NCBI GenBank assembly: GCA_041488375.1
Contig: JBGPPD010000004.1
Location: 1-40,987, forward strand
Length of the DNA: 40,987 nucleotides
Direction: 5' to 3'
Source: Gammaproteobacteria bacterium
GTDB lineage: Bacteria > Pseudomonadota > Gammaproteobacteria > Burkholderiales > SG8-39
Part shown: piece by piece, positions 5,319-40,987 of the stretch
Layout: the number at the start of each line of letters is the position of its first letter
How positions within the stretch are numbered: position 1 is the stretch's first letter
The notes under the pieces: model-generated
What the model was told of the DNA's origin: nothing
What the model saw: the letters and a program-made list of their open reading frames with translations, nothing else
Database searches by the model: none
Position numbers and translations under genes: made by a program

Positions 5319-6260
5319 TCAACTGAATGCGAGCGCGCCGCGGACCCGCGCAGGCCATTTCTTCGTGTCCAGGCCGTGCTTCCAGAACAGCCCCACCACC
5401 AGGCGGTCCATGCCGAACGCGACGCAACCGGTGTGGCAGAACGTCCCGCCGGCATCGCGCATTTCCCACGTCGTGCCAAAGTGGTCCTGGTGATAGTTGA
5501 AGCTCATGCACGCGGTCGGCTCTTCCTGCGAGCGCATCGGTACCAGCAGCTCGAACTTGAGCGACTGCTGCAGCTGGGCGATCGCCATGACCTGGCCGGT
5601 ACGGCCGAAGAAGGGATCGCTCGCCGTGGCGACCTTATGGGGCAAATCCAGCTCATCCGCCATGCGCTGGGCGCGCTCCATCCAGCGCTGGCGGAAGGCA
5701 GTCACCTCCTGCTGCGTGCCGATGCAGACGTATTCGCGCATGCGAAAAGACTGCAGGCGATCGAGGTGCCGCGACGGCTCGCGCCGGAAACAGTCCGCGG
5801 CCACGTCGAAGCGCAGGCCGCCGGGTGGAACCGGCCCGCGGCTCGCCGCCAGCGGATAGACCGGATAGCAGGCGGCCGGGGAAAGGACCAGGTCGGCGAC
5901 GGCCAGAGAGGCGGTCCAATCGCCGCCCTTCTCGTGCCGATCCGCAGCCGCGCGGATCTCGGTTTCCGTGCCGTGCAGCGCGCAGACGCACCCGAGCAGG
6001 TTCGGGAAGCTCTTCAGGTAGCCCGATTTCTCCAGTTGGCTCCGGCTCATCACCGGGGGAAACCGCAGGATCTCCGTGCCCGGCTCGCGCTGGCGCGAGA
6101 TGAACGCCGCGAGGCGCTCGATCACGTCCTCGTAGAGCCAGGTGCGCGCATAAACCCCGTCCGCGCCCATCGGCCTGAACAACGCCGTAGCCATCGCGTC
6201 GAGCCCCTCGCCCGCCGCCGGGGACCTGACGCGCGCCTCGCCGGCGCTATCCATGCTCAT
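5319..6260 (-). CDS. Amino acid--[acyl-carrier-protein] ligase (aa:CP ligase, atypical seryl-tRNA synthetase homolog)
   Basis: Class II aaRS catalytic core without a tRNA-binding domain: SGYLKSFP, PAACYP, FRREPS..DRLQSFRMREYV (motif 2), DPFFGR, CMSFNYHQDHFG, HTGCVAFGMDRL (motif 3). Adjacent to an acyl-CoA dehydrogenase and an ACP. Confidence 0.92.
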   Translation of the reverse strand: MSMDSAGEARVRSPAAGEGLDAMATALFRPMGADGVYARTWLYEDVIERLAAFISRQREPGTEILRFPPVMSRSQLEKSGYLKSFPNLLGCVCALHGTETEIRAAADRHEKGGDWTASLAVADLVLSPAACYPVYPLAASRGPVPPGGLRFDVAADCFRREPSRHLDRLQSFRMREYVCIGTQQEVTAFRQRWMERAQRMADELDLPHKVATASDPFFGRTGQVMAIAQLQQSLKFELLVPMRSQEEPTACMSFNYHQDHFGTTWEMRDAGGTFCHTGCVAFGMDRLVVGLFWKHGLDTKKWPARVRGALAFS

Positions 6261-6284
6261 GGGGAACCGGCCTCCTGATCGGCG

Positions 6285-7472
6285 CTAGTCGCTGATGGTC
6301 GTCGCAACGGGACTCATCAGTGTGGTCGCCGCCACATTGGCGAGGATGCGATCGTTGTTGATCATGATCGGCGAGGACAGGATGTCGCGCAGGTACCGGC
6401 CGATGGTGAATTCGCCATCATTGCGGTAACCCGCGAGCCCGCAGGCGCGAAGCGCAGCCAGCACCGTCGACACCGCCAGCTCCGAGGCCTCGACCTTGGT
6501 GAGGTTGACCATGGTCTGGAATTCGAGCGAGGCGAGCTTGCCTTGGTCGTGCGCCGCCAGTTCGAATTTGCGCAACGATGAGGCCACCAGCCCGCGCAAC
6601 GTCAGGAGCGAAGCACTGGCCTTCGTGTAGTGCGCAGCGCCCGGCGGCATCTGGCCGCCCGACTGGCGCGCCGCAGTGCGCAGGAAAGTCTGCGCGCGCT
6701 CGACCGCGCCTGCCGCGACGCCGGTCCACACGCTCGCCCAGGACAGGTGCGCCACCGGCCCCATGCTCTGAACGTGGATCGCCTCGTACGGATCGGGGAG
6801 GATCTGCTCGGCCACGCCGGACGCCTTGAGCGTGTATCCCGAGCTGCAGGTGCCGCGCATGCCCAGCGTGTCCCAGGACGTCAGCGGCTCGAGCGTGTAT
6901 TCCTCTTTCATGAAGGCGACCAGCACCTGGTCGGCGGCGGCGGCATCGGCCGCGCGGCGCGCGGTCGTGACGATGGCGTCCGCGTTGGCTCCATACGAAA
7001 TCACGGTGGCGCGCCGCTCCAGGCTGATGCGATCGCCGTTGCGCTCGACCGGCGCCTCGCTGGCGCGCACGTTGCCGCCGCCTCGTCCTTCCGTCGTCGA
7101 GGAGGCGAACAGCAATTGCTCGGCGGCCAGGCGGCGCAGCAGGCGCTCATGCCAGGCATTGTTCCTGCGATGCCGCATCACGCACGCGACCATGATCTGG
7201 TGCATCGCAAAGATCATCGCCGAAGAGGCGCATGCGCGGCCGAGCCGGTAGCAGATCCCGAGCGCCGCCGAGAGGCCCGCGCCCTCGCCGCCGAGATCCC
7301 GCGGCACCATGATTCCCATCAGGCCCTGGGACTTGGCCGCCTTGAACGTTTCCTCGGGAAAGCGCGCTTCGCGATCGACCGCTGCGGCGTGCTTGTCCGC
7401 GATCGCGGCGACCGCGTCGGCGCGCGCCCTGAGGTCCATGGGTGGTTCGATGCCAGCGTCAATGGTCTTCAT
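6285..7472 (-). CDS. Acyl-CoA/acyl-ACP dehydrogenase-family flavoprotein (atypical)
   Basis: VDREARFP..GLMGIMVPRDLGG, FASSTTE, WDTLGMRGTCS, GLAGYRND, RYLRD; 395 aa. Confidence 0.88.
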   Translation of the reverse strand: MKTIDAGIEPPMDLRARADAVAAIADKHAAAVDREARFPEETFKAAKSQGLMGIMVPRDLGGEGAGLSAALGICYRLGRACASSAMIFAMHQIMVACVMRHRRNNAWHERLLRRLAAEQLLFASSTTEGRGGGNVRASEAPVERNGDRISLERRATVISYGANADAIVTTARRAADAAAADQVLVAFMKEEYTLEPLTSWDTLGMRGTCSSGYTLKASGVAEQILPDPYEAIHVQSMGPVAHLSWASVWTGVAAGAVERAQTFLRTAARQSGGQMPPGAAHYTKASASLLTLRGLVASSLRKFELAAHDQGKLASLEFQTMVNLTKVEASELAVSTVLAALRACGLAGYRNDGEFTIGRYLRDILSSPIMINNDRILANVAATTLMSPVATTISD

Positions 7473-13305: not shown

Positions 13306-13656
13306 TCAGTACATGACGTAGATGAACTCGGATACGTCGACGCTCTCCTCCTCAACATGGCGCAGGGATCTCGCGAGACCTGCCATCGCGGGCGCGAGGT
13401 TCGCGAGCAAGCGCACGTCGCCGCCCCCCCAAACGTCAGCAAAATCAGCCTCGACCGCTTGTGGCGTCGAGCAGCCGCCCTTCTCAAAATCACCCTTCTT
13501 CATCTCGGTGGACGTCCTGCGCACGAAGTAGCTTGGGGCATCCTTGTCCAAGCGCGTTTCGAGGAAGGTCACCCCCTCACCCTTCAGGCGTCTGGAAAGC
13601 GGCAACAGCTGCTCGTCAAACAGCCGATCAATATCCCTGTCAAGATCCTCAGTCAC
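13306..13656 (-). CDS. Hypothetical soluble 116-aa protein ending in ...DVSEFIYVMY
   Basis: GTG 13656 after GGAG overlaps the carbamoyltransferase stop and fills the gap to the GT4 gene. Acidic, with no hydrophobic segment. Confidence 0.72.
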   Translation of the reverse strand: MTEDLDRDIDRLFDEQLLPLSRRLKGEGVTFLETRLDKDAPSYFVRRTSTEMKKGDFEKGGCSTPQAVEADFADVWGGGDVRLLANLAPAMAGLARSLRHVEEESVDVSEFIYVMY

Positions 13657-15499
13657 GGCCGTACTCCGTCTTCCAGTTGTCGTTGTCGTCAAACTCGGGT
13701 TGTACGTCCTTCCACAGCAGGAACTCCTCCAGGACGAGCAGGTCGATCCCGGTTCGCATGAAGCAGGTGTATGCATCCTTCGGCGACTGCACGATCGGCT
13801 CGCCGCGGACGTTGAACGACGTATTCACGACAACGCCGATGCCTGTGATGTCCTTGAATGCCCTGATCAAACGATGGAATTCCGGATGATCGTCCCGGTG
13901 CACCGTCTGCACTCGCGCACTGTAGTCGACGTGGGTGATTGCGGGGAGGTCCGACCGGACTTGATTTACCACGCGCAGCATGTCGTCATCGGCGTCGCTG
14001 TCGAACAATCCAGACTTAACCGGCATGCGCCGGTCGTCGCGAACAGGGGCGACCAGCAGCATGTACGGGCTCTCGCCGGTCATCTCGAAGTACTCACTTG
14101 CGTCTTCGGCGAGAACGGCGGGCGCAAACGGCCTGAACGATTCGCGGAATTTCACTTTCAGGTTGAGCTTGCTCTGCGTGTCATGCCTGCGTGGATCGGC
14201 CAGGATCGAGCGCGCGCCCAGCGAACGCGGACCGAACTCCATGCGACCCGAGAAGTAGCCCACCACCTTTCCGTCGGACAAGGCCTTGGCGACGACCCTT
14301 GCGCGCTCCTCGCCGTCAACGATGCGTTCGCAGGGGTAGTCTTGGCGGTCAAGAAACGCGGCGATCTCGTTCGCCTTGTACGCCGGACCGAGGTAGCTGC
14401 CGCGCTGGCTGTCGCGGCCGTTAATCGCACGATGGCGCGGTTCGCCGAAGTACGCGTGGTTGACGAGGAGCGCCGCACCCAGCGACCCGCCGGCGTCTCC
14501 CGCGGCGGGCTGTATCCAGAGGTTGTCGAAAACCCTTTCCCGCTGCAGTACGCCGTTCGCGACGCAATTGAGCGCCACACCGCCGGCCAGCACGAGGTTC
14601 CTTGCGCCAGTCTGCCTTCTCGCGCGACGGGCGAGCGCAAGCACGAGTTCGGTCGTCACCGCCTGAATCGACGCGGCAAGGTCCATCTCGCGTCGCGTGA
14701 TGCGCGATTCGGACTTGCGCGCGCTGCCGCCGAACAGCGCTTCGAATTTCGCATTGGTCATCGTCATGCCGTCGACGTAGCCGAAATACTCGAGGTTCAG
14801 GCGATAGGACCCGTCCGGCTTGATGTCGATCAGGTGGTCCTTGATGGCCTGCGCATAGCGCGGCTGGCCGTAGGGGGCGAGCCCCATCAGCTTGTACTCC
14901 CCAGAGTTGACCTTGAAGCCGCAGTAGTACGTGAACGCGCTGTACAGCAGGCCCACCGAGTGCGGATAGTCGATCTCTTCGAACAACTCCACGCGTGCTT
15001 CCCGGCCCGCTCCGATCGAGGTCGTCGACCACTCGCCCACGCCGTCCAGCGTGAGGATCGCGGCTTCGTCGAACGGTGATGGGTAGAACGCGGACGCCGC
15101 ATGCGCCATGTGGTGCTCGGTAAAGAGCACTTCGCCGAGCTTTCCCGTCGTCCCGATCGCTTTTTCGACGTGATCCTTGACCCAGATCTTCACACCAAGT
15201 ATCGACTTCGCCGCGCGTCTGAACTGCTCGCGCGCCGGCTCCCCGGCGTGCATGCAGTTCCGGACCACGCGATCCCAGGTGTGGAGCGCCTTGTCGTAGA
15301 AGACTACGGCGTCAAGCTCGTCGGGCTCTGCACCCGCCTCCTCGAGACAATAGTTGATCGCGTTCCTCGGAAAGCGGGGATCGTGCTTGCGGCGGGTGAA
15401 GCGTTCCTCCTGCGCCGCGGCCACGATGCGTCCATTCTGGACCAGTGCGGCTGCCGCGTCGTGGTAGAAGGCGCTGATTCCCAGGATGGTCCTGCTCAT
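13649..15499 (-). CDS. Carbamoyltransferase, NodU/CmcH/TobZ family (copy 1)
   Basis: ILGISAFYHDAAAA, QEERFTRRKH, EHHMAHAASAFY, GEYKLMGLAPYG, LAGGVALNC, PAAGDAG, EFGPRSLGARS, KFRESFRPFAP, THVDYSARVQTV, NTSFNVRGEP. ATG 15499 in an ATGA overlap. Confidence 0.95.
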   Translation of the reverse strand: MSRTILGISAFYHDAAAALVQNGRIVAAAQEERFTRRKHDPRFPRNAINYCLEEAGAEPDELDAVVFYDKALHTWDRVVRNCMHAGEPAREQFRRAAKSILGVKIWVKDHVEKAIGTTGKLGEVLFTEHHMAHAASAFYPSPFDEAAILTLDGVGEWSTTSIGAGREARVELFEEIDYPHSVGLLYSAFTYYCGFKVNSGEYKLMGLAPYGQPRYAQAIKDHLIDIKPDGSYRLNLEYFGYVDGMTMTNAKFEALFGGSARKSESRITRREMDLAASIQAVTTELVLALARRARRQTGARNLVLAGGVALNCVANGVLQRERVFDNLWIQPAAGDAGGSLGAALLVNHAYFGEPRHRAINGRDSQRGSYLGPAYKANEIAAFLDRQDYPCERIVDGEERARVVAKALSDGKVVGYFSGRMEFGPRSLGARSILADPRRHDTQSKLNLKVKFRESFRPFAPAVLAEDASEYFEMTGESPYMLLVAPVRDDRRMPVKSGLFDSDADDDMLRVVNQVRSDLPAITHVDYSARVQTVHRDDHPEFHRLIRAFKDITGIGVVVNTSFNVRGEPIVQSPKDAYTCFMRTGIDLLVLEEFLLWKDVQPEFDDNDNWKTEYGRD

Positions 15500-16527
15500 G
15501 GTGCCTGCCGCTTCCCCAGGAGCGCCGAGATCGCCGGCGCCACTGCTTTCGCCAGGGCTTCGTGCCCGGTCCTGGTCAAGTGACCGTCGTTCGGGAAGTA
15601 GAACGACCTGCGAACATCCGGAGCATGCTGCAAAAGCAGCGGCAGCGGGTCGTGAAATGTGCCGCCCGCAGCCTCTGTGGCCGAGCGCAGGCGCGCCTGG
15701 TAGGTGCGGGGACTCGAAATCCCGCAAACGTAGTGGTACATCGGAATGGGCACCAGCATCACCGGTTTGGTGTGGCCGCCGATCCATTGGGCGATCAGCG
15801 CCCGCATGACGAGCCATGCCGGATTGCTGGAATTCTCGTAATCCTTGATCGGCTGATAGCGCAGCGTGGCGAGCACCCTGTCCTTCAGCCCGCTCCTGAT
15901 TACAAGATTGTCGAACCGTGGACTGCGTTTCAGGCGATTGAGCAGGCGCTTGAGTCCGGGAAATCGCTCGACCGCCGATATGTACTGCCTGTCCTCCGCG
16001 GAGAGTTCTGCCGGATCGACCGGCCGCTTGCTGGGCGGAACGCCTCGCAACTCGAGCTTTCCCTCGCGCAGTGTGTAGAAAGGCTTTGCGTAGAGCACTC
16101 GCTCGCCCGCTTCGTTGGCGAAATACCGATAGCGCGAACCCACCCGGCGGATGTTCTCGACGAATACGGCGATCACCAGGAGGTCGTGGTCGATGTCCTG
16201 CGCGTACTCCCGGTAAACGAGATAGTGCTGATCGAGTCCGGTTGCGGGCAGGCCGAAGTTGTAGACCTGGAGATCAGGCAGGATTCTCTCGAGGTGATCG
16301 CCATAGCGATAACCGTTGGATACGCCCTCGCCGGCGGTGAACGAATCTCCGAACAGCAGAATCCGGCGCGTGCCCTCCTTGCGCCGGCGCTCGAACGGAT
16401 GGTCGCAGCGAAAACCGGTCTCGTTCGTGCGCACGAGATAGCCGCCACCTTCGTGCGGGACGCGTGCCCTGGTCTCCGGAACGAAGCGAAAGCCGATGAC
16501 CGGGTGATATTCATAGATCTGGCGCAC
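15496..16527 (-). CDS. SGNH/GDSL-family protein with no evident signal peptide
   Basis: LLFGDSFTAG (block I Ser), VYNFGLP, FPNDGHL (DxH). Probable GTG start at 16527 overlapping the upstream TAG. Confidence 0.85.
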   Translation of the reverse strand: MRQIYEYHPVIGFRFVPETRARVPHEGGGYLVRTNETGFRCDHPFERRRKEGTRRILLFGDSFTAGEGVSNGYRYGDHLERILPDLQVYNFGLPATGLDQHYLVYREYAQDIDHDLLVIAVFVENIRRVGSRYRYFANEAGERVLYAKPFYTLREGKLELRGVPPSKRPVDPAELSAEDRQYISAVERFPGLKRLLNRLKRSPRFDNLVIRSGLKDRVLATLRYQPIKDYENSSNPAWLVMRALIAQWIGGHTKPVMLVPIPMYHYVCGISSPRTYQARLRSATEAAGGTFHDPLPLLLQHAPDVRRSFYFPNDGHLTRTGHEALAKAVAPAISALLGKRQAP

Positions 16528-17660
16528 TATGGCAGCAGAGGTTTCATTGGTGAACGCGATGATACGCCCGCGCACAAAAAATCTGCGCAGCAGTACCTGA
16601 TGACCCGCCGCACCGGATTTGCGATGGAAATGAAGCTCAACCTTCCGCCGCGCCGCTGTTGCTCGCCTTGCAACAACACGAGGAGCCCGACGAATGCGCT
16701 GTCCACGTACGAGACGTTTCCCATATCCAGATCGATATCCCTGCCGGCGCGAACCACGTTGGAGAAGCAGGCCCGCAAGGGGTGGATATTCTGCATTGTC
16801 CACCCGCCCCGCAAGCGGATCAGAAAGCCGTCTTTCTCCTGAATGGTTTCGATACCCGGCGTTGCCAACTGATCGGCGGCCGACTTGCGCAGCAGCAGAT
16901 ACCAGGCGTAGGGAAGCACGCGCGTCATCACGAGCGCAAGAAATGCCATCCCATCCCGCAAATAGCGCCGGCTCAGCGCAGGATCTTCCTTGATCCGCCA
17001 AAGCCACTCCAGGCCGCTGTTCTGCACCCACGCCGGTGCCCGCTGCACTGCGCCTGCCACGAAATTCAGGACGGCGCCGAGGTGGCTGATCACTGGCACG
17101 TTCACCTGCTGCAGATTGCGTTGAATCCAGGCCTGGCCCTTGCGCGCCCCGAGCGATACGACGAGAAAATCCGCGTTGCTGGCGTTGATGTCCTGAATGG
17201 TCTCTTCGCTGCTCATCTCCTCGATGGAGCCGAATCCGGGAGACTTGTGTCCAACGCAAGTCAGACCCCCGTTCTCCAGCGAAAGTGCCCGGCATGCCGT
17301 TTCGGCCGCTCCATCAGGGCCGCCGAAGAAGTAGATCGACAGCTGTTCCCCAGGGCCGCGGCGAAGCAGTTCGAACAAGCTGGAGCCAGCGACCCGCCCG
17401 GGGATCGGAATGCCGAGCAAGCGCGCAATCCATACTACCGGCATGCCATCCGCAATGCTCAGGTCGCTGCGTATGACTGAATCGCGAAACTCCCGGTCGG
17501 CGAGGCTGGCCACGATGAAGTTCAGGTTCGGGGTCGAAAGAAAGCACTTCCGCCTTTTCTTGGCAGCGTCGCGAATCCTGCCCGCGGCCCCTGCCAGATC
17601 CACAGCGTCAAACGGCAGTCCGAGCAGGCAGTAGACATTGCGCTCGAACACATCAGCCAA
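16527..17660 (-). CDS. WecB/TagA/CpsF glycosyltransferase with C-terminal STAS domain
   Basis: LSTPNLNF, IADGMPVVW, RVAGSSL, LGARKGQAW, RAPAWVQNSGLEWLWR; C-terminal LRGGW...IDLDMGNVSYVDSAFVGLL. Start (TTG 17660 or GTG 17651) uncertain. Confidence 0.9.
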   Translation of the reverse strand: MADVFERNVYCLLGLPFDAVDLAGAAGRIRDAAKKRRKCFLSTPNLNFIVASLADREFRDSVIRSDLSIADGMPVVWIARLLGIPIPGRVAGSSLFELLRRGPGEQLSIYFFGGPDGAAETACRALSLENGGLTCVGHKSPGFGSIEEMSSEETIQDINASNADFLVVSLGARKGQAWIQRNLQQVNVPVISHLGAVLNFVAGAVQRAPAWVQNSGLEWLWRIKEDPALSRRYLRDGMAFLALVMTRVLPYAWYLLLRKSAADQLATPGIETIQEKDGFLIRLRGGWTMQNIHPLRACFSNVVRAGRDIDLDMGNVSYVDSAFVGLLVLLQGEQQRRGGRLSFISIANPVRRVIRYCCADFLCAGVSSRSPMKPLLP

Positions 17661-34617: not shown

Positions 34618-36447
34618 TCAATCAAGTTCGAATGCCGACTCGTAGTTCCGCTTGAGCGCCGGATCCTGGTCGCCCTTGCGCAGGTAACAATTGCCGACGG
34701 CCAGGACGTCCAGCTCGGTGCCCATAAAGCACCGAAAAGCGTCCTCCGGCGTGCCCACGATCGGCTCGCCGCGCACGTTGAAGCTGGTGTTCACCACGAC
34801 CGGACAGCCCGTCTTGCGTTCAAACGCGGACAGCAAGGCGTGATAGCGCGGGTTGGTGTCTTCGTGCACCGTCTGGATGCGCGCGGAGTAGTCAATATGC
34901 GTAACTGCAGGTATGTCGGACCGTGGCACGTTGAGCTTGTCGATTCCGAATAGCTGCTCTTCCTCAGCTGTCATGTCGCGACGCCGGGACTTCACCACAT
35001 CAGCCACCAGCAGCATGTACGGACTGTCGCAATCGAGCTCGAACCAGTCGCTCACGCGCTCGCGCAGGACCGATGGCGCAAACGGCCTGAAGGACTCGCG
35101 GTATTTGACCTTGAGGTTGAGCATTTTTTGCATGGTCGGCGAGCGCGGATCGCCCAGGATCGAGCGGTTGCCGAGCGCGCGTGGGCCAAACTCCATTCTT
35201 CCCTGGAACCAGCCGAGCGCTTTGCCCTGCGCCAAGTCTTCCGCGGCAGTCGCGATCAACGCGGCATCATCCAGCACTACGATTCGCGCTCCGCAGCTTT
35301 TCAGGCGTGACTCGATGTCTGGAAGCGCAAACGCGGGCCCGAGGTAAGCGCCCCTCATGGCGTCGCCATTGGCCGTTCGCTTCTGACCCCGCTGCATGTG
35401 GTAGCCGACCAACGCCGCACCCAAGGCACCTCCCGCATCCCCCGCGGCGGGCTGGATGTAGATCTGTTCGAAGGGGCCATCGCGCAAGACCTTTCCGTTA
35501 GCCACGCAGTTGAGCGCGACTCCACCTGCCAGGCAGAGATTCCTGAGCCCCGTTTCCTTGTGCAGCGATTGCGTAAGGCGCAGCACCACCTCCTCCGTCA
35601 CCACCTGGATCGATGCGGCCAGATCCATATGCCGCTGCGTCAGAAGCTGGTCGGGCTTGCGCGCCGGTCCGCCGAACAGGCCGTCGAATTTCGCATTCGT
35701 CATGGTCAGGCCGGTACAGTAGTCGAAATACGAAAGATCCAGCCTGAACGACCCGTCGGCTTTCACATCGATCAGGTTTCCAAGGATCTTGTCCGCGTAC
35801 TTTGGCTCGCCATAGGGCGCCAGACCCATGACCTTGTATTCACCGGAATTTACCTTGAATCCAGTGTAGTAGGTCAAGGCCGAATACAGTAGGCCCAGTG
35901 AATGCGGGAAGTGGATTTCCTTGCGAACTTCAAGGCTATGTCCCTTGCCGATCGCGGCGGAGGTAGTCGCCCATTCACCCACGCCGTCCATCGTCAGAAC
36001 GACTGCCTCGTCGAAGGGTGACGGAAAGAAAGCGCTCGCTGCGTGGCTCAGATGGTGCTCGCTGAACAGCAGCTCCTGGTTCCAGCCACCGCCCCCATCG
36101 AGATTCCCGAACTCCTTTTTCAGCAGGTCCTTCAGGAAGAGCTTTTCCCGCAGCCACAAGGGAATCGCCATCCTGAACGACTTGAACCCAACCGGCGCGA
36201 AGGTCAAATACGTCTCGACCAGCCGCTCGAACTTCAGGAACGGCTTGTCGTAGAACACTATGTGATCCACGCCGCCCAAGGCGACCCCGCCTTCGTACAA
36301 GCAGTAGCGGATCGCATCTGCGGGGAACCGGGAATCGTGCTTCTTGCGCGAGAATCGCTCTTCCTGCGCGGCGGCCACAATGCGGCCGTCCTCGATCAGC
36401 GCGGCGGCGCTGTCGTGATAGTAAGCCGAGATCCCGAGTACTCGCAC
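34618..36447 (-). CDS. Carbamoyltransferase, NodU/CmcH family (copy 2; SxtI-like)
   Basis: GTG 36447: VRVLGISAYYHDSAAA, QEERFSRKKH, YDKPFLKFERL, EHHLSHAASAF, GEYKVMGLAPYG, KYRESFRPFAP, NTSFNVRGEP, FELD*. Confidence 0.95.
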   Translation of the reverse strand: MRVLGISAYYHDSAAALIEDGRIVAAAQEERFSRKKHDSRFPADAIRYCLYEGGVALGGVDHIVFYDKPFLKFERLVETYLTFAPVGFKSFRMAIPLWLREKLFLKDLLKKEFGNLDGGGGWNQELLFSEHHLSHAASAFFPSPFDEAVVLTMDGVGEWATTSAAIGKGHSLEVRKEIHFPHSLGLLYSALTYYTGFKVNSGEYKVMGLAPYGEPKYADKILGNLIDVKADGSFRLDLSYFDYCTGLTMTNAKFDGLFGGPARKPDQLLTQRHMDLAASIQVVTEEVVLRLTQSLHKETGLRNLCLAGGVALNCVANGKVLRDGPFEQIYIQPAAGDAGGALGAALVGYHMQRGQKRTANGDAMRGAYLGPAFALPDIESRLKSCGARIVVLDDAALIATAAEDLAQGKALGWFQGRMEFGPRALGNRSILGDPRSPTMQKMLNLKVKYRESFRPFAPSVLRERVSDWFELDCDSPYMLLVADVVKSRRRDMTAEEEQLFGIDKLNVPRSDIPAVTHIDYSARIQTVHEDTNPRYHALLSAFERKTGCPVVVNTSFNVRGEPIVGTPEDAFRCFMGTELDVLAVGNCYLRKGDQDPALKRNYESAFELD

Positions 36448-36458
36448 GCCCGCCCCTC

Positions 36459-36608
36459 TCAGAACAGTGTGTAGATGAACGGCGCGACAGCTGAACCGTG
36501 AGCCAGAACGATCAGAACCCCCAACAGCGCCATCATGATGAAGATCGGCCAGAGCCAGTACTTCTTTCGGCTGCTCAGAAAAGCCCACAATTCCCTGATC
36601 ATCGACAT
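36459..36608 (-). CDS. Small membrane protein, SxtK-like / DUF5989-type (49 aa), C-terminal FIYTLF
   Basis: Below the ORF-track length cutoff. Manual translation: MSMIRELWAFLSSRKKYWLWPIFIMMALLGVLIVLAHGSAVAPFIYTLF*. RBS AGGAAAG; lies between the SxtJ-like gene and the carbamoyltransferase. Confidence 0.9.
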   Translation of the reverse strand: MSMIRELWAFLSSRKKYWLWPIFIMMALLGVLIVLAHGSAVAPFIYTLF

Positions 36609-36617
36609 GGTGCTTTC

Positions 36618-37037
36618 CTAGAACTGGTTGGTCATGGAATCTGGCGGCGGTCCGGGCGGATCACGCGGTATCCAGTACGAAACCGCGCGCGCATCGCGCT
36701 TGAGACGCAGCGGGTCCTTTCCCGTGAGACGCATCGCAACCCCTAGCGGCGTGAGAACCCCGTAGAACAACACGCCGAGCGCGATCGGGCTGACCACCTT
36801 GCCGAGCAGAACGCCCAACCTGGTCCACCAGCGATTGAGCCCTGCGAGCGAAGACGGCCTGAGTAGCGCGACCACGGCAAACAGCCCGGACGCCAGGAAC
36901 GCCCACCATCGCGGCGCTTCAGCGTGCAAGAGCGGCACTCCACCTATCAGGAGAAACGCCGCCGCAAACACCAGGCCAAAGCTGCGATCGGACGAACTCT
37001 CCAAGCGCTGTTCCCGAGTCAGGTCTTCATGTGCCAT
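36618..37037 (-). CDS. SxtJ-family membrane protein
   Basis: SDRSFGLVF, LNRWWTRLG.LLGKVVSPIALGVLFYGVLTPLG..MRLTGKDPL, SYWIPR, SMTNQF. Confidence 0.88.
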   Translation of the reverse strand: MAHEDLTREQRLESSSDRSFGLVFAAAFLLIGGVPLLHAEAPRWWAFLASGLFAVVALLRPSSLAGLNRWWTRLGVLLGKVVSPIALGVLFYGVLTPLGVAMRLTGKDPLRLKRDARAVSYWIPRDPPGPPPDSMTNQF

Positions 37038-37149
37038 AAGCGCGTCAATTATCGTTCAGTCGGAGTGCTTGCGCTTACCTTAGGGGCCGAGCGGCTCTAA
37101 CAAATTATTACGCAATTCGACATTCCTGTGCCCGCGCCCGCGCAGCGCT

Positions 37150-38523
37150 TTATCTGGCCGAATTCAGCATCCCGTGAGCGAGCAAATAGTCCGTCACCAA
37201 CTGCGCCGCCAACCGCTGGCCTGCGGCGTTCCAGTGGTCGTCGCCGCCGTGGAAATAAAGAGCGTTCGGGTGGTTCGCGCGAAAGACATCGTAGAGGCTG
37301 ACGAACGGCACGCCCAGCGCCCGGGCCGCGTCCTCCAGCGGAGCGATCTGATTGCGCCCGTCATACTCAGGATAGCGCTTGCGGTCGACCCGCCAATCGT
37401 CGTACTGATCCGTCACGTCAAACGGGTGCGGGATAAAGAGGAAAGCCAGCGGCACGCCGCTCCGTGCGGTCACGTCGCGCATTCTCCGCAGCACTGCACG
37501 CATCAGCGCAATTTCGTAGCGCGCAGAGGCGCTCCGCGGAGTCAAGCTGACGTTTGCGCTGTAGTAATCCGTGTAGATATTGGTGACTACGTCGTCTCGT
37601 TCGGCGACGAAGTTCCGGTACTCGCGCTCCGATTCAGCCAGCAGGAAGTCCATGTCGATGAGGTCCGCCGTATTCCCTCTCTTGTAGCGTTGCAAGATAT
37701 TTCGCACTCCCCGCTTGAGTATCGACTCCTGCTGGCCGAGTGCGAAAAGCATGCGCAGCTTGCGGTCGAGTTTCCAGCGGTTGGTCACCAGACCGCCGTC
37801 GGCGCCAAGCAGGAACATCTTGTTGCGCATGAGATCGCCGTAGTCGTTGCCAGCGAAGATCGCCATGATGACAAGAGAAGGACGGAGCCCGGGAAGTTCG
37901 TCTTCCATCTTGAGGCTCTCCTGATCCGGCCCATAGGAGCTCACGCCCGCGTTGACGGTCTCCACTTGCTTGCCGAGGCGGCGCGAGAGCATCGCGCCGA
38001 GTTGGGCCACGAAAGTCTCCTCCTCCGCAGTGTAGAACGCGTGAATGAACGAGTCACCATAGACGGCTATGCGAATCCCCTCGCCGGCAGGCTGCAATTC
38101 ATTGCCGCGAAAGCCGGCGGAATTGATGCGATGCGTCACCGTGACGCCGCCATTCAATGGAGCGCGCGTCATCGCGCTCCGGCGATTCGGAATGAACTTG
38201 AAAATCAGCCGGTCGTCGTACTGGTAAATGGGGCGCAAGCGCGGCCCAAGCAGGCTTTCTCCTGCGATTTCGGCAATGGCGAGCATGAGGAGGCTGGTGA
38301 CCGCCAGAACCAGGATGCGTGCGCGAATCGCGGCTGGGAGAAACGAGCAAATCGCAATGCCTCCACCAGCGAAAGCGATCAGCGCCTGAAAACCGCCAAA
38401 TCCTCGCTCGCCCCCATAGAACGGATGATCGGAAATCGCATACGCGATCATCGTCGCACCTATCAGGAGCAACAGGATCCTCACAATCCGGGTGCGGGAG
38501 TCAGACACAGGATTGGAATTCAT
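37150..38523 (-). CDS. Membrane-anchored SGNH/GDSL-family protein
   Basis: Three N-terminal hydrophobic segments; INSAGFR, VYGDSF, NAGVSSYGP, FAGND, YFHGGDDHWNAAG. Start 38523 or 38541. Confidence 0.87.
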   Translation of the reverse strand: MNSNPVSDSRTRIVRILLLLIGATMIAYAISDHPFYGGERGFGGFQALIAFAGGGIAICSFLPAAIRARILVLAVTSLLMLAIAEIAGESLLGPRLRPIYQYDDRLIFKFIPNRRSAMTRAPLNGGVTVTHRINSAGFRGNELQPAGEGIRIAVYGDSFIHAFYTAEEETFVAQLGAMLSRRLGKQVETVNAGVSSYGPDQESLKMEDELPGLRPSLVIMAIFAGNDYGDLMRNKMFLLGADGGLVTNRWKLDRKLRMLFALGQQESILKRGVRNILQRYKRGNTADLIDMDFLLAESEREYRNFVAERDDVVTNIYTDYYSANVSLTPRSASARYEIALMRAVLRRMRDVTARSGVPLAFLFIPHPFDVTDQYDDWRVDRKRYPEYDGRNQIAPLEDAARALGVPFVSLYDVFRANHPNALYFHGGDDHWNAAGQRLAAQLVTDYLLAHGMLNSAR

Positions 38524-38564
38524 GACAATCAGTCTATACACAAGGCGAAGGGGCGCCTATTTCG

Positions 38565-39221
38565 CTAGACAGGCCAGAAGCAGCACTTCACCCAGATCAA
38601 TCCGAACGTTTGCTCGAAAACGGCCTTGGCGCCGACGCTGGTTTGCCACCACGCATCGCCGTCGTATTCCTGCGATCGAGCTGCGTACACCCCCACCCTG
38701 ACGTGCGACCCGAACGCAAGCTGATACAGAATGCGGGAACGGCGAGCGTGAACGTCCCACGAGAAGACGTCGAGCGAGTCGATCGCAAGTCCGGATCGTT
38801 TCGCCCACTCTCGAATCATGACCGCGCTCAGATAGGTACGGTTGCGCGCCGACTCCGGGCTGGGAACAGCGGTCACGGACGCATCCCGGATTCCATGGTG
38901 CCTTAGGTACTCGGCCGCCAAGTCCGCATACGTGGCGTGGTGCCGCTGCTCGGGCCAGCTTTGGATTGGCCCCCCGCTGGTCACGATTTGCTCGTAGCCC
39001 TTCGCGTGAAACGTGATGATGGCCTGGTCGAGGCCCTCGGGTTCCATCCAGCCCTCGACGGCCAGGATGCGTGCGCCGACGGGACGGGTCAAGGCGAGGA
39101 ATGAGTGGAGGCTGCTGGCAACGATTGCGGAAATCGCGCCACCGACCAAGAGCAGCGCGAGCCATCCCCAGATCGTCGGGAGCCATATCTCACGCCTACG
39201 CGCGAAGGACGGTCGCTTCAT
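38565..39221 (-). CDS. YdcF/DUF218 (ElyC/SanA-like) membrane protein
   Basis: N-terminal TM; LAVEGW, IVTSGG, RNRTYLSA, HARRSR, WWQTSVGAKAVFEQ. Confidence 0.8.
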   Translation of the reverse strand: MKRPSFARRREIWLPTIWGWLALLLVGGAISAIVASSLHSFLALTRPVGARILAVEGWMEPEGLDQAIITFHAKGYEQIVTSGGPIQSWPEQRHHATYADLAAEYLRHHGIRDASVTAVPSPESARNRTYLSAVMIREWAKRSGLAIDSLDVFSWDVHARRSRILYQLAFGSHVRVGVYAARSQEYDGDAWWQTSVGAKAVFEQTFGLIWVKCCFWPV

Positions 39222-39342: not shown

Positions 39343-40987
39343 CTACCTCAGCAGCAGCCAGTAAGTGCCGAGATTGCGATCGAGATTGATGAGGTACCGT
39401 CCATCCTTGTAGAGCGTCGTCATCTCCTGCCGCTGCAGCCCAGGCCCGCCTTGCGAGTGCTTGTAGGGCGAGCCCTCGTCCGCGGACTCGTTGCTCGAGT
39501 AGAGCTTGAGCCCGCCGGGCGCGCGAATCGCGAGCTGGCCTTCAACTGGTTCCGAGTAGTACGGCAATCGATTCCCGGTTTGGGGAATGGATCGCGCGCC
39601 GACCGAAATGAGTATCGTGCGGGAGTTGCGGATCGGGCTTTCGCTCAGACTCTGAACAGCGACAGTCGCGTTTCGCGTGATCACGCCAATGCTCACGTCC
39701 GCGAGATTGATTTTCATTCCACCGATCCATCCGGTAACGGCCTGGCTGCGGGGGCTATCGATGACAAAGGTGCCCTTCTCCCAGTTGCGCCGAAGCTCGC
39801 CGGTATCGGAGATTGCCTCCGCGGCATCGACGTTGATGACGGAGTGCTTTGGGTCAGCAATGACTCTAGCGCCCTCCGGTATCGGCGATCGCGCCAGCCA
39901 TGGCAATTCCTTCGTATGCGGCAGCACGATGAGCAGCTTGCCCTTCTCTACCGCGGTACGCAGGCCGGCGGCATTTTCCGGAGAAACGGATTGATTGAAG
40001 AGCTGCTCGCTGCTGGGAGCATAGGCGTAGATATCCGTGGCCTCCCGGACATCGCCTCGCCGGTAAAGAAGCGCTGCAGCCGGCAAGGTGGCCAGCATTG
40101 CCGGGTCGTTGAAGGCGGCCCAGTTGGAGGGTGCTCCCGGCGAGTTCAGCGCTACCTGCGAGTAGGCGTAATGCATCAGCGCTTTCCATCCCTGATGGCT
40201 GGCTGAGGCGGCAACGTACAGTGGAACGCTGTGCCGGTCGGGGACCGGGAAACCTTCAACGTTCCATTCAGTTGCGCTCAGAGGCCTGCCCGCAATCTGC
40301 GCCGCGGCGATCCAGTGCACCAGGCCAGGCGCGTACACCGGGTTCTTTTCCAATTCTCCGACACCGCCATAGGAGTGCGCGTCGATGATGTCCCCCGCTG
40401 TCAGGGCGGGCAGGGAGCTCAGCGGACTAGCGCCCCAAGTGCTCGTCGTGACAACAGGAATCTTGACGCCTTGCGCCCGCAGATGCGCGATCATTTCTGC
40501 GCCGAAACGATATTCGAGGTCGTTGAGAAACAACTTCGACGGGCCCGGCTCCCACGATCGCCACACCTTCTCCCTGGGCAGGCCGCGGGATTGAGCAAAC
40601 GCCTCGGCCTTGCTCATGTACAGGGCACTGTGCTGGGGGACGCTCTTCGCGGGCAGCAGGGCGTTCCCGTAGTGGTGGGTGAGGTCGTTTTCGTTGGTGA
40701 TGAGCATCGCGACGATGGCCGGGTCCTCCTTGTAGCGCAGTCCCGTGTGCGCATTGCTGCGATTCACATATGCTTCGTTGAACGCTTTCATCGCCTGCTG
40801 AATACTGGCGTTGACGTAGTTGTACCCCTTCAGTTCCGCGGTGGGTTTGCCCTTGCTTATTTCCGCGAATCCTTCGATTCCGTCGCCGACCTTGAACTGC
40901 CGCCCGACGTGAAGGTCCAGCCAGACATAGATGCCTTCGTCCTTCAGACACTTGATCCACCAATCCAGCTTTTCGAGCATGGCGGGA
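39343..40987 (-). CDS. Glycoside hydrolase, GH-A clan (GH5-like); 5' end runs off the right edge
   Basis: GIYVWLDLH, NAHTGLRYKEDPAI, ITNEND (acid/base), IDAHSY, LSATEWN (nucleophile). The frame is open to the window edge. Confidence 0.78.
   Translation of the reverse strand, partial: PAMLEKLDWWIKCLKDEGIYVWLDLHVGRQFKVGDGIEGFAEISKGKPTAELKGYNYVNASIQQAMKAFNEAYVNRSNAHTGLRYKEDPAIVAMLITNENDLTHHYGNALLPAKSVPQHSALYMSKAEAFAQSRGLPREKVWRSWEPGPSKLFLNDLEYRFGAEMIAHLRAQGVKIPVVTTSTWGASPLSSLPALTAGDIIDAHSYGGVGELEKNPVYAPGLVHWIAAAQIAGRPLSATEWNVEGFPVPDRHSVPLYVAASASHQGWKALMHYAYSQVALNSPGAPSNWAAFNDPAMLATLPAAALLYRRGDVREATDIYAYAPSSEQLFNQSVSPENAAGLRTAVEKGKLLIVLPHTKELPWLARSPIPEGARVIADPKHSVINVDAAEAISDTGELRRNWEKGTFVIDSPRSQAVTGWIGGMKINLADVSIGVITRNATVAVQSLSESPIRNSRTILISVGARSIPQTGNRLPYYSEPVEGQLAIRAPGGLKLYSSNESADEGSPYKHSQGGPGLQRQEMTTLYKDGRYLINLDRNLGTYWLLLR

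Follow-up and report, generated by a model that had tools for sequence, protein, structure and literature searches.

What could be the function of a 49-aa membrane peptide that ends in the tyrosine motif of an acyl shuttle, if the genome that encodes it holds no membrane-bound O-acyltransferase (MBOAT)? This question is raised by a 40,987-nt stretch of DNA, here referred to as the window, from a Gammaproteobacteria bacterium (Burkholderiales; SG8-39; contig JBGPPD010000004.1 of assembly GCA_041488375.1). The peptide, a DUF5989 protein named K in the following, is encoded between the genes of an SxtJ-family membrane protein and a carbamoyltransferase (CT), and a membrane-anchored SGNH enzyme is encoded in the same operon. 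Additionally, the window holds a soluble set consisting of an SGNH enzyme, a CT and a 116-aa tail protein, named T. The answer put forward here is a carbamoyl-tyrosine relay from the CT to the tail, from the tail to the SGNH enzyme and from there to a polymer, a proposal that comes near to an even chance without reaching it. The more specific proposal that SxtJ together with DUF5989 (in the membrane) and T (in solution) would be the carbamoyl-tyrosine carriers, loaded by the CT and unloaded by the SGNH enzyme onto the final acceptor, is made somewhat more tentatively. Statements cited by PMC or bioRxiv identifier refer to excerpts of the respective papers.

The four genes of the membrane type form a tight operon on the minus strand in the order SGNH1 - SxtJ - K - CT1. 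SGNH1 (37150..38541, 463 aa), a membrane-anchored SGNH/GDSL enzyme and homologue of SxtL and CgnD, is followed after 112 bp by the SxtJ-family gene (36618..37037, 139 aa), the stop codon of which lies 9 nt before the start of the DUF5989/SxtK-type microprotein K (36459..36608, 49 aa) in the same frame. The spacing between K and CT1 (34618..36447, 609 aa), a NodU/TobZ-type O-carbamoyltransferase, is 11 nt and holds GAGAGGGG. The GTG at 36447, 11 nt past the K stop and with its Shine-Dalgarno context, was taken as start codon of CT1, and not a start at 36588. The neighbours of K that had been named from the sequence alone, a membrane SGNH protein, SxtJ and a carbamoyltransferase, were all recovered with Pfam, namely by PF13472 (E 5.4e-10) and PF16822 (ALGX; E 1.8e-6) for SGNH1, by PF19588 (E 1.6e-10) for SxtJ and by PF02543 (E 2.2e-108) and PF16861 (E 1.8e-75) for CT1; NCBIfam has no model covering SxtJ or K. 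The SxtJ family is marked by the conserved motifs RxFG near the N-terminus and RLxGKDxL...SYWxxR...QF in a basic C-terminal tail. With CT, SxtJ, DUF5989 and SGNH genes all adjoining, the operon is, as judged from its sequence, a true homologue of sxtL/J/K/I, and it lies in a polysaccharide locus, which also encodes glycosyltransferases, a WecG-type transferase, deacetylases and a flippase-type protein.

K is composed of a basic N-terminus (SSRKKYW), a single hydrophobic helix, Gly-Ser and the C-terminal end HGSAVAPFIYTLF. Its tail, GSAVAPFIYTLF-COOH with the ending FIYTLF, agrees with FxYxxF, the motif by which DltX and PatA act as acyl shuttles. The layout given by the sequence-only reading for the 49-aa gene at 36459-36608 (RKK at the N-terminus, one transmembrane helix, GS linker, FIYTLF) is therefore the one seen here, and the likeness to DltX in size and arrangement (about 50 aa, basic N-terminus, one transmembrane helix, FxYxxF-COOH) holds as well. 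That reading had also regarded the gene as unannotated. The gene is real, but it is not without a family: K is a full-length member of the curated, uncharacterised Pfam family PF19451 (DUF5989; 91.4 bits, E 3.6e-26, gathering cut-off 27, positions 1-49 of 49), which is also matched by 28 of 28 aligned K relatives and which comprises at least 2750 cluster representatives at E<=1e-3. A sequence search of solved structures with K returned only transmembrane-helix noise (best E 0.26).

Variability of the tail tyrosine had been named beforehand as an observation that would speak against a shuttle; the tyrosine at position -4 is kept in all 182 K relatives examined. Among the 150 best representatives it is present in each of the 145 profile-aligned domains that reach the end of the profile (114 finish exactly at the motif, 31 extend past the terminal Phe, and 6 rows stop short), and in the genomes of the phylum it is present in all 30 K copies found with the Pfam profile. 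The seven lowest-scoring members likewise keep the tyrosine, with varying flanks (TFIYTLF, SAVYTLF, PFIYAIF, PYIYAMF, PFLYAIF). Moreover, the ending is rare. In a six-frame translation of the whole genome only 2 of 49,450 stop-closed frames of at least 25 aa end in F[IVL]Y..[FY], at an expectation of 0.01, and these two are K and T, each of which adjoins one of exactly two CT genes of the genome, CT1 and CT2. Across 26,600 frames of the fetched loci 136 such endings were counted, of which 117 belong to the K family, 16 to MBOATs and 2 to T, the remaining one being a micro-transmembrane peptide that precedes a transmembrane-anchored SGNH protein. The ending of K is more than chance. Apart from this, locus L106 (G014:C21:99428-99785) holds two tandem K paralogues with the endings APLIYTMF and APFIYTLY, and some of the over-running K representatives read into the CT gene, two of them in a manner that looks like a frameshift and one (P0274) as a clean K-CT fusion.

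Given its DltX-like size, layout and motif, K could simply act like DltX, with its MBOAT being encoded in another part of the genome, and the sequence-only reading, which had described the module as MBOAT-less within the window, had itself named such a distant partner among the findings that would refute it. The absence extends beyond the window, since no match to PF03062 (MBOAT) was obtained in the 361 contigs of this 99% complete genome. In a sample of 401 genomes from the phylum, DUF5989 was present above the cut-off in 50 and an MBOAT in 116. MBOATs are commoner in K-positive (28/50) than in K-negative genomes (88/351), as a distant partner would lead one to expect, but 22 of the 50 DUF5989-positive genomes are without any. 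In a set of 80 related K loci an MBOAT was present within 7 kb of K in only four cases, and all four of these MBOATs end in a fused FIYF[DQ]F tail and stand beside an SGNH gene of their own; the gene that does adjoin K is a CT, in 69 of the 80 loci. These loci were screened for MBOATs by phmmer with a single MBOAT as query, by a scan for the C-terminal motif and by a Pfam analysis of 27 multi-helix proteins, so that distant members may escape detection. Taken with the missing PF03062 match in its own genome, these results leave the assignment of K to an MBOAT elsewhere close to refuted. One of the loci, L025, holds a second, divergent K-like peptide (6118-6348, minus strand; ending LPFLYALF), which leads a minus-strand run down to 1486 with three SGNH genes and an MBOAT that itself ends in FIYFDF; the run and the SxtJ-K-CT operon of L025 are divergently oriented.

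The second tail of the genome belongs to T (13306..13656, minus strand, 116 aa), a soluble acidic protein without earlier annotation that ends in SEFIYVMY-COOH. T has no helix fit to span a membrane, and its GTG start overlaps the stop codon of CT2 (GTGACTGA). No Pfam family was matched by T at E<=1, a sequence search of solved structures gave one chance match (E 0.46), a word-index search returned no candidate, the gene being probably uncalled in most records, and in a protein atlas the nearest clusters were without names and reached scores of at most 0.89, which are leads only. A scan of metagenomes yielded 37 relatives with 26-45% identity; T lies directly 3' of a CT wherever upstream DNA is present, and the order SGNH-CT-T was found in 13 of 13 loci with at least 3 kb upstream. 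Profile comparison with hhalign aligned residues 12-60 of T with residues 90-138 of SxtJ (probability 91%, E 9.6e-7) and 13 tail columns of T with K (probability 87%, E 4.2e-6). Against an alignment of natural SxtJ-K fusions the match was collinear and stronger, T 13-116 falling on positions 91-192 (probability 95%, E 3.1e-8). By these profile comparisons, T is a remote soluble homologue of the C-terminal part of SxtJ plus K. In two metagenome loci (L143:3-4194 and L155) T is directly followed by a membrane module SGNH-SxtJ-K-CT, so that both systems co-occur as they do in the window. In another locus, a frame at L136:10344-10514 (plus strand) codes for a micro-peptide of about 34 aa, which has a single hydrophobic helix and ends in MFLYGRF; the frame directly precedes the gene of a transmembrane-anchored SGNH protein and is 4 kb away from a soluble SGNH-CT-T operon.

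The SGNH enzymes of the two systems differ in the same way as their tail proteins. SGNH1 belongs to the SGNH superfamily, with the block I Ser, the block III Asn, the block V His and a fold that matches many SGNH chains at Z ~17; 28 module-linked homologues all keep G162, S164 and H436, N232/D233 being near-invariant, and PF16822 (ALGX) covers residues 340-455 with 28.3 bits at a cut-off of 26.5. Its AlphaFold2 (AF2) model (mean pLDDT 75.9) begins with three N-terminal helices (15-36, 49-65, 70-102), after which come a beta extension and then the SGNH fold. SGNH2 (15496..16575, minus strand, 343 or 359 aa, the GTG start at 16527 or 16575 being uncertain) belongs to the same subfamily (module SGNH profile, E 1.6e-48) and has no transmembrane segment, the maximal 17-aa hydropathy upstream of the GDS block being 0.48, compared to 2.54 in SGNH1. 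The same division is found in the relatives. None of 14 T-linked SGNH proteins (12 metagenome loci, SGNH2 and L136) has a transmembrane segment, and 26 of 27 K-adjoining SGNH proteins with a locatable GDS block have an N-terminal hydrophobic segment. The test was a simple hydropathy window on heuristic gene starts, and 10 further K-adjoining SGNH proteins without a strict GDS match were left unscored. Due to the fact that the type of tail protein matches the compartment of the SGNH enzyme, the tail would work with the SGNH domain and in the compartment of the latter.

Among the matches listed, the solved structure closest to SGNH1 is CgnD (8a2n; Foldseek E 1.8e-9; VIA Z 23.0, rmsd 2.8, 236 aligned residues, with generic SGNH chains at about Z 17), and the further top structural neighbours listed are esterases and thioesterases. 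Chains of DltD, PatB, AlgX or AlgJ were not among the best 50 rows given by Foldseek or VIA-align for SGNH1; lower-ranked matches are possible. CgnD is a soluble SGNH-like protein from the crocagin cluster, which also encodes a carbamoyltransferase, CgnI (PMC10070186), and the CT-linked SGNH subfamily may share a function that is as yet unrecognised. Directly upstream of SGNH1 and on the same strand (minus) are two ORFs, 38565-39221 (218 aa, with an N-terminal helix) and 39343-40980 (545 aa), neither of which matched any model in Pfam or NCBIfam.

CT2 (13649..15499, minus strand, 616 aa), the second carbamoyltransferase of the genome, was identified by PF02543 (E 2.9e-93) and PF16861 (E 2e-71). 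Its ATG overlaps the stop codon of SGNH2 (ATGA), and neither SxtJ nor DUF5989 was found beside it. CT1 and CT2 are 54% identical (BLASTP, 333/612), and both belong to the NodU/TobZ/HypF superfamily, with an N-terminal Kae1-like (PF02543) and a C-terminal YrdC-like domain (PF16861); the NodU model is matched at E 6.6e-46 and 1.1e-41, respectively, far under its equivalog cut-off, and the HypF model is weakly matched by CT2 (E 4e-4). In the genome scan all 55 K-linked CTs scored at least 322 bits against PF02543, compared to at most 217 bits for most CTs without K, and CT2 and a T-linked relative are intermediate (316 and 300 bits). Six CTs without K also reach the K-linked range (G056, G266, G157, G064, G386, G090:C262); five high-scoring K-less CTs were fetched, and three of these scored far lower against the module CT profile. 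From these scores, the type of partner seems to track the CT clade.

How firmly the parts belong together was assessed from the surroundings of K in the 80 loci, 52 of which are fully flanked with at least 4 kb on both sides. The CT adjoins K also in 45 of the 52 fully flanked loci, SxtJ in 65 of 80 (43/52), and any SGNH match is present within 7 kb in 50 of 80 (34/52). Exceptions include insertion sequences that adjoin K in L022 and L049. Some of the fetched loci come from named strains of Bradyrhizobium, Ensifer and Azorhizobium. In non-toxin cyanobacterial loci the gene order is CT-J-K-SGNH. Natural fusions join the partners: CT and SxtJ are a single ORF in L126 (753 aa) and L071 (747 aa), SxtJ and K are fused in P0272 and P0273 (192 aa; the SxtJ stop being changed to Lys or Tyr) and in a third case, P0048, and a TM-less SGNH protein is fused with a CT in L132 (1084 aa). 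A K-CT fused ORF is known as one clean single sequence, P0274, and two other K-CT read-throughs resemble frameshifts. Through the CT-SxtJ and SxtJ-K fusions, SxtJ is linked physically to the CT as well as to K. Moreover, K or a K-like peptide stands beside SGNH genes without a CT in L068, L032 (K-SGNH), L055 and L025. On the 3.6-kb contig of L068 (2-2579), K is located between an SGNH gene and the gene of an AT3-family acyltransferase (PF01757, E 4.9e-33), with neither CT nor SxtJ in between. Genome G157 has the 1084-aa SGNH-CT fusion (L132:7345-10596, minus strand) next to a CT-SxtJ pair (L132:4962-7252, plus strand) and no detectable K. Divergent from the SGNH-CT fusion of this genome is a basic ORF of about 57-61 aa (L176:208-393) that ends in KKKDPDIYPFF-stop, with Tyr again at -4; a scan of the fetched loci for KDP..Y tails gave nothing convincing.

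These surroundings bear on a simpler view, in which SxtJ and K are a mere membrane anchor, the CT carbamoylates a lipid-linked repeat unit on the cytoplasmic face, and nearby SGNH genes have a part in O-acetylation or esterase reactions that belong to the polysaccharide locus but are unrelated to the CT. K loci are indeed polysaccharide loci rich in glycosyltransferase, Wzy and flippase genes, many of them have no adjoining SGNH gene, and SxtJ shows no catalytic-looking residues. However, T is soluble and carries the same tail, therefore anchoring cannot be the conserved function, and an invariant C-terminal hexapeptide would be superfluous for it. The pairing of T with soluble and of K with anchored SGNH proteins, the fixed SGNH-CT-T order and the existence of an SGNH-CT fusion also speak against unrelated SGNH genes, and the anchor view is considered unlikely.

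The relay is preferred because of the tail motif, the invariance of the tyrosine, the specificity of the ending, the lack of an MBOAT partner and the fusions. Further reasons are the homology of T to SxtJ plus K, the match of compartments, the invariance of the SGNH Ser and His, the K or K-like peptides directly beside SGNH genes without a CT and the precedent of HypF, by which HypE is carbamoylated at its C-terminal Cys, within the motif PRIC (PMC12130793). We infer that the four genes constitute one machine with a soluble twin in the window. In this machine, the NodU/TobZ-type CT would make carbamoyl-AMP in the cytoplasm, and SxtJ and K would act as a two-piece membrane adaptor, in which the basic C-tail of SxtJ and the amphipathic N-terminal helix of K, the part common to T and SxtJ-K, might keep the CT on the cytoplasmic side of the membrane. 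The single helix of K would span the membrane and present the tail V-A-P-F-I-Y-T-L-F-COOH beside the periplasmic catalytic domain of the SGNH enzyme. A HypF/TobZ-type CT would load the invariant tyrosine of V-[AS]-P-F-I-Y-x-x-[FY]-COOH, which would take the carbamoyl group as an O-aryl carbamate, and a CgnD/SxtL-type SGNH enzyme would unload it, the carbamoyl group passing from the tail tyrosine to the SGNH serine and from there to a sugar hydroxyl of the exported polysaccharide. This route would parallel the acyl-tyrosine of DltX/DltD and PatA/PatB, except that no MBOAT takes part. Aryl carbamates are known to carbamoylate serine hydrolases. SGNH2-CT2-T would be an equivalent relay that takes place wholly in the cytoplasm, with a soluble protein carrying the tail.

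Several observations weigh against this relay. K is 53-76% identical across phyla and conserved along its full length, compared to about 20% identity for the SGNH partners, and as far as sequence conservation can tell this pattern would suit a structural subunit no less than a carrier. The 80 K loci were picked by the tail pattern APFIYTLF and give no independent information on the conservation of the tail, and all 37 T relatives were retrieved by tail pattern, so that the tail conservation there is a product of selection. A T profile without the tail recovered just the two known T genes from 391 genomes; in favour of the homology of T to SxtJ, it also weakly cross-matched SxtJ genes immediately upstream of K in four genomes. 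SGNH genes directly beside K (same strand, within 2.3 kb) occur in only 32 of 80 loci (21/52 fully flanked), and 30 of 80 have no SGNH match within 7 kb. SxtJ has no conserved polar or catalytic residue within the membrane. The profile of the DltX family (DltX/DUF3687) matched 0 of 28 K-family members at E<=10, in a test in which the HMMER filters discard most matches above an E of about 0.1. Homology of K to the C-termini of MBOATs was rejected as a candidate: in an hhalign comparison with 16 of them only 10 tail columns were aligned (probability 8%, P 0.004), and due to this restriction to the tail such homology is not claimed. Known CTs of the NodU/TobZ family are generally held to carbamoylate the final acceptor directly.

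A number of these points would be accommodated by the main rival to the relay, a non-covalent adaptor, in which the role of SxtJ-K and T is limited to tethering the CT to the SGNH enzyme, the tyrosine tail docks into the cleft of a partner and is never loaded with carbamoyl, the CT itself carbamoylates the acceptor and the SGNH enzyme is an editing hydrolase, either a decarbamoylase or a hydroxyl-freeing deacetylase. Fusions and gene order indicate association, not chemistry, a direct transferase and a K conserved over its full length are both what an adaptor would call for, and esterases and thioesterases are among the top listed structural neighbours of SGNH1. SxtL has been proposed to be a decarbamoylase (PMC2679770, PMC3037375), and CgnD, the solved structure nearest to SGNH1 among the matches listed, is reported to be a very slow leader-peptide hydrolase, the protease activity of which took up to 96 h (PMC10070186), which counts against the relay as well. 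On the other hand, a trans-membrane tether without a chemical relay has no evident purpose, the tyrosine is constant amid varying flanks (e.g. FIYAIF, YIYAMF, AVYTLF), and the tail fits a motif whose tyrosine is a proven acyl acceptor and donor to SGNH partners (PMC12148441). The adaptor is therefore regarded as doubtful, although it is the alternative to be taken most seriously.

A further difficulty for the relay is the loading of the tail, which had been raised in the sequence-only reading and persists: the positive-inside rule places the tail of K outside and thus away from the CT. The mean number of Lys/Arg residues in SxtJ is 2.8 at the N-terminus, 0.9 in loop 1, 2.3 in loop 2 and 7.5 in the C-tail, and the CT-SxtJ fusions put both ends of SxtJ in the cytoplasm. 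Based on these charge counts and fusions, the N-terminus of K would be inside and its tail outside beside the SGNH domain, which is the more likely orientation. The opposite is suggested by the AF2 model of the natural SxtJ-K fusion P0272, in which SxtJ forms the helices 15-38, 44-59 and 61-104 before the helix of K (pLDDT 76.6, pTM 0.42). Three SxtJ helices and an N-terminus fixed inside by the CT-SxtJ fusions would leave the tail of K in the cytoplasm, away from the SGNH enzyme, and the K-CT fused ORF P0274 (a single sequence) also points to a tail inside, both to the detriment of the relay. If the topology were inverted in this way, with three full spans of SxtJ, the tail tyrosine would be loaded in the cytoplasm, K would serve the CT only, e.g. 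as primer, activator or substrate-gating plug, and the periplasmic SGNH enzyme would touch the basic tail of SxtJ and the N-terminal helix of K; the tail of T is likewise cytoplasmic, together with its CT. However, the mean of 7.5 Lys/Arg of the SxtJ tail and the RKK of K would then become periplasmic, which would strongly violate the positive-inside rule, the pTM of the model is just 0.42 with a pLDDT of 67-70 for the third helix, and P0274 is one sequence beside two frameshift-like read-throughs. The inverted topology is accordingly held to be quite improbable.

A literature check, which had been advised at the outset, found no prior description of DUF5989, of these tail sequences or of carbamoyl-tyrosine, and no account of polysaccharide carbamoylation linked with these genes was found in the literature. 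A tyrosine tail with an SGNH partner is a known principle; new are the carbamoyl group and the enzyme that donates it, SxtJ as a component, the soluble form T and the independence of MBOATs. If the relay is true, a tyrosine group-transfer relay without either an MBOAT or an AT3 enzyme would be a first, as would a carbamoyl-protein shuttle across the cytoplasmic membrane, and the relay would account for the carbamoylation of envelope polymers outside the cytoplasm. DUF5989 and SxtJ have, in the excerpts of the papers cited here, been without assigned function since the description of the saxitoxin cluster. With at least 2750 sequence clusters and 50 of 401 sampled genomes of the phylum, the reach of DUF5989 is wide, and SxtJ, SxtK, SxtL and perhaps CgnD would be recast as parts of a carbamoyl relay instead of unknowns and a decarbamoylase. 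The SGNH2-CT2-T triad, which consists of three cytoplasmic proteins, offers a membrane-free system that is directly testable, and T (13306..13656) is gained for annotation as a newly recognised gene of an unnamed family.

Of the known systems, the saxitoxin genes sxtI/J/K/L belong to these same four families and agree with them in size (sxtI 1839 bp, sxtJ 405 bp, sxtK 165 bp, sxtL 1281 bp; PMC2679770), but they are part of an alkaloid cluster, whereas the genes of the window belong to a polysaccharide locus. SxtI/J/K have been 'hypothesised to work in conjunction' (bioRxiv 2026.06.11.731795) and an 'SxtI/SxtJ/SxtK complex' has been named (PMC12300590); no mechanism for SxtJ or SxtK is given in the excerpts of PMC2679770, PMC2684587, PMC3037375, PMC12300590 and bioRxiv 2026.06.11.731795. 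The paper on the suomilide cluster describes sxtJ, K and L-like genes that cluster together. The crocagin pair CgnD/CgnI resembles the present modules in that an SGNH-like protein is encoded in a cluster with a CT, and it differs in the leader-peptide hydrolysis reported for CgnD. HypF and HypE share with them the YrdC/Kae1 carbamoyltransferase superfamily and an acceptor in an extreme C-terminal motif of the partner (PMC12130793); in contrast, HypE takes up carbamoyl on a Cys thiol, after which the product is dehydrated to thiocyanate and not handed to a serine enzyme, and neither an SGNH protein nor a membrane is involved.

The MBOAT-SGNH pairs (PatA/PatB, AlgI) have in common with K a C-terminal transmembrane helix, a Gly/Ser-rich linker, F[IL]Y..F-COOH and an SGNH partner acting outside, as is apparent from the tail ...QGSSAKFIYFDF of the MBOAT of L016 compared to ...QGSAVAPFIYTLF of K, and 15 of the 16 MBOATs fetched end in F[IL]Y[FY]xF. 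The shuttle motif FXYXXF, in which DltX and bacterial MBOATs end, has a tyrosine that accepts the acyl group and donates it to the SGNH partner (FIYANF in Neisseria PatA; PMC12148441). In these pairs the motif is fused to the MBOAT that loads it, for which no counterpart was found in the genome of K, and in K it is part of a free-standing microprotein, which according to the excerpt of PMC12148441 is lacking in MBOAT pathways other than Dlt. The DltX/DltB/DltD system, which serves the D-alanylation of teichoic acid, is alike in that a membrane-anchored SGNH-type enzyme of a cell-envelope polymer pathway is also the partner of K (DltX data from PMC5541007, PMC12148441 and PMC13653941). DltX of Bacillus thuringiensis has 48 aa, with residues 1-11 inside, a helix at 12-33 and residues 34-48 outside (PMC5541007), it ends in ...FIYNEF (PMC5541007, PMC13653941), and its complex with DltD was modelled with AlphaFold3 at an ipTM of 0.80 (PMC13653941). 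Unlike DltX, for which two invariant residues are reported (PMC5541007), K is conserved over its full length, and it is not encoded with an MBOAT (DltB) and dltA/C, its setting being without MBOAT (no PF03062 in the genome), carrier protein and dlt genes. The donor for K would instead be a cytoplasmic ATP-dependent carbamoyltransferase, and the small membrane protein SxtJ is an extra component. If the tail tyrosine of K carries a carbamoyl group, the acyl-tyrosine principle of DltX and PatA would be extended to a new group and a new donor enzyme.

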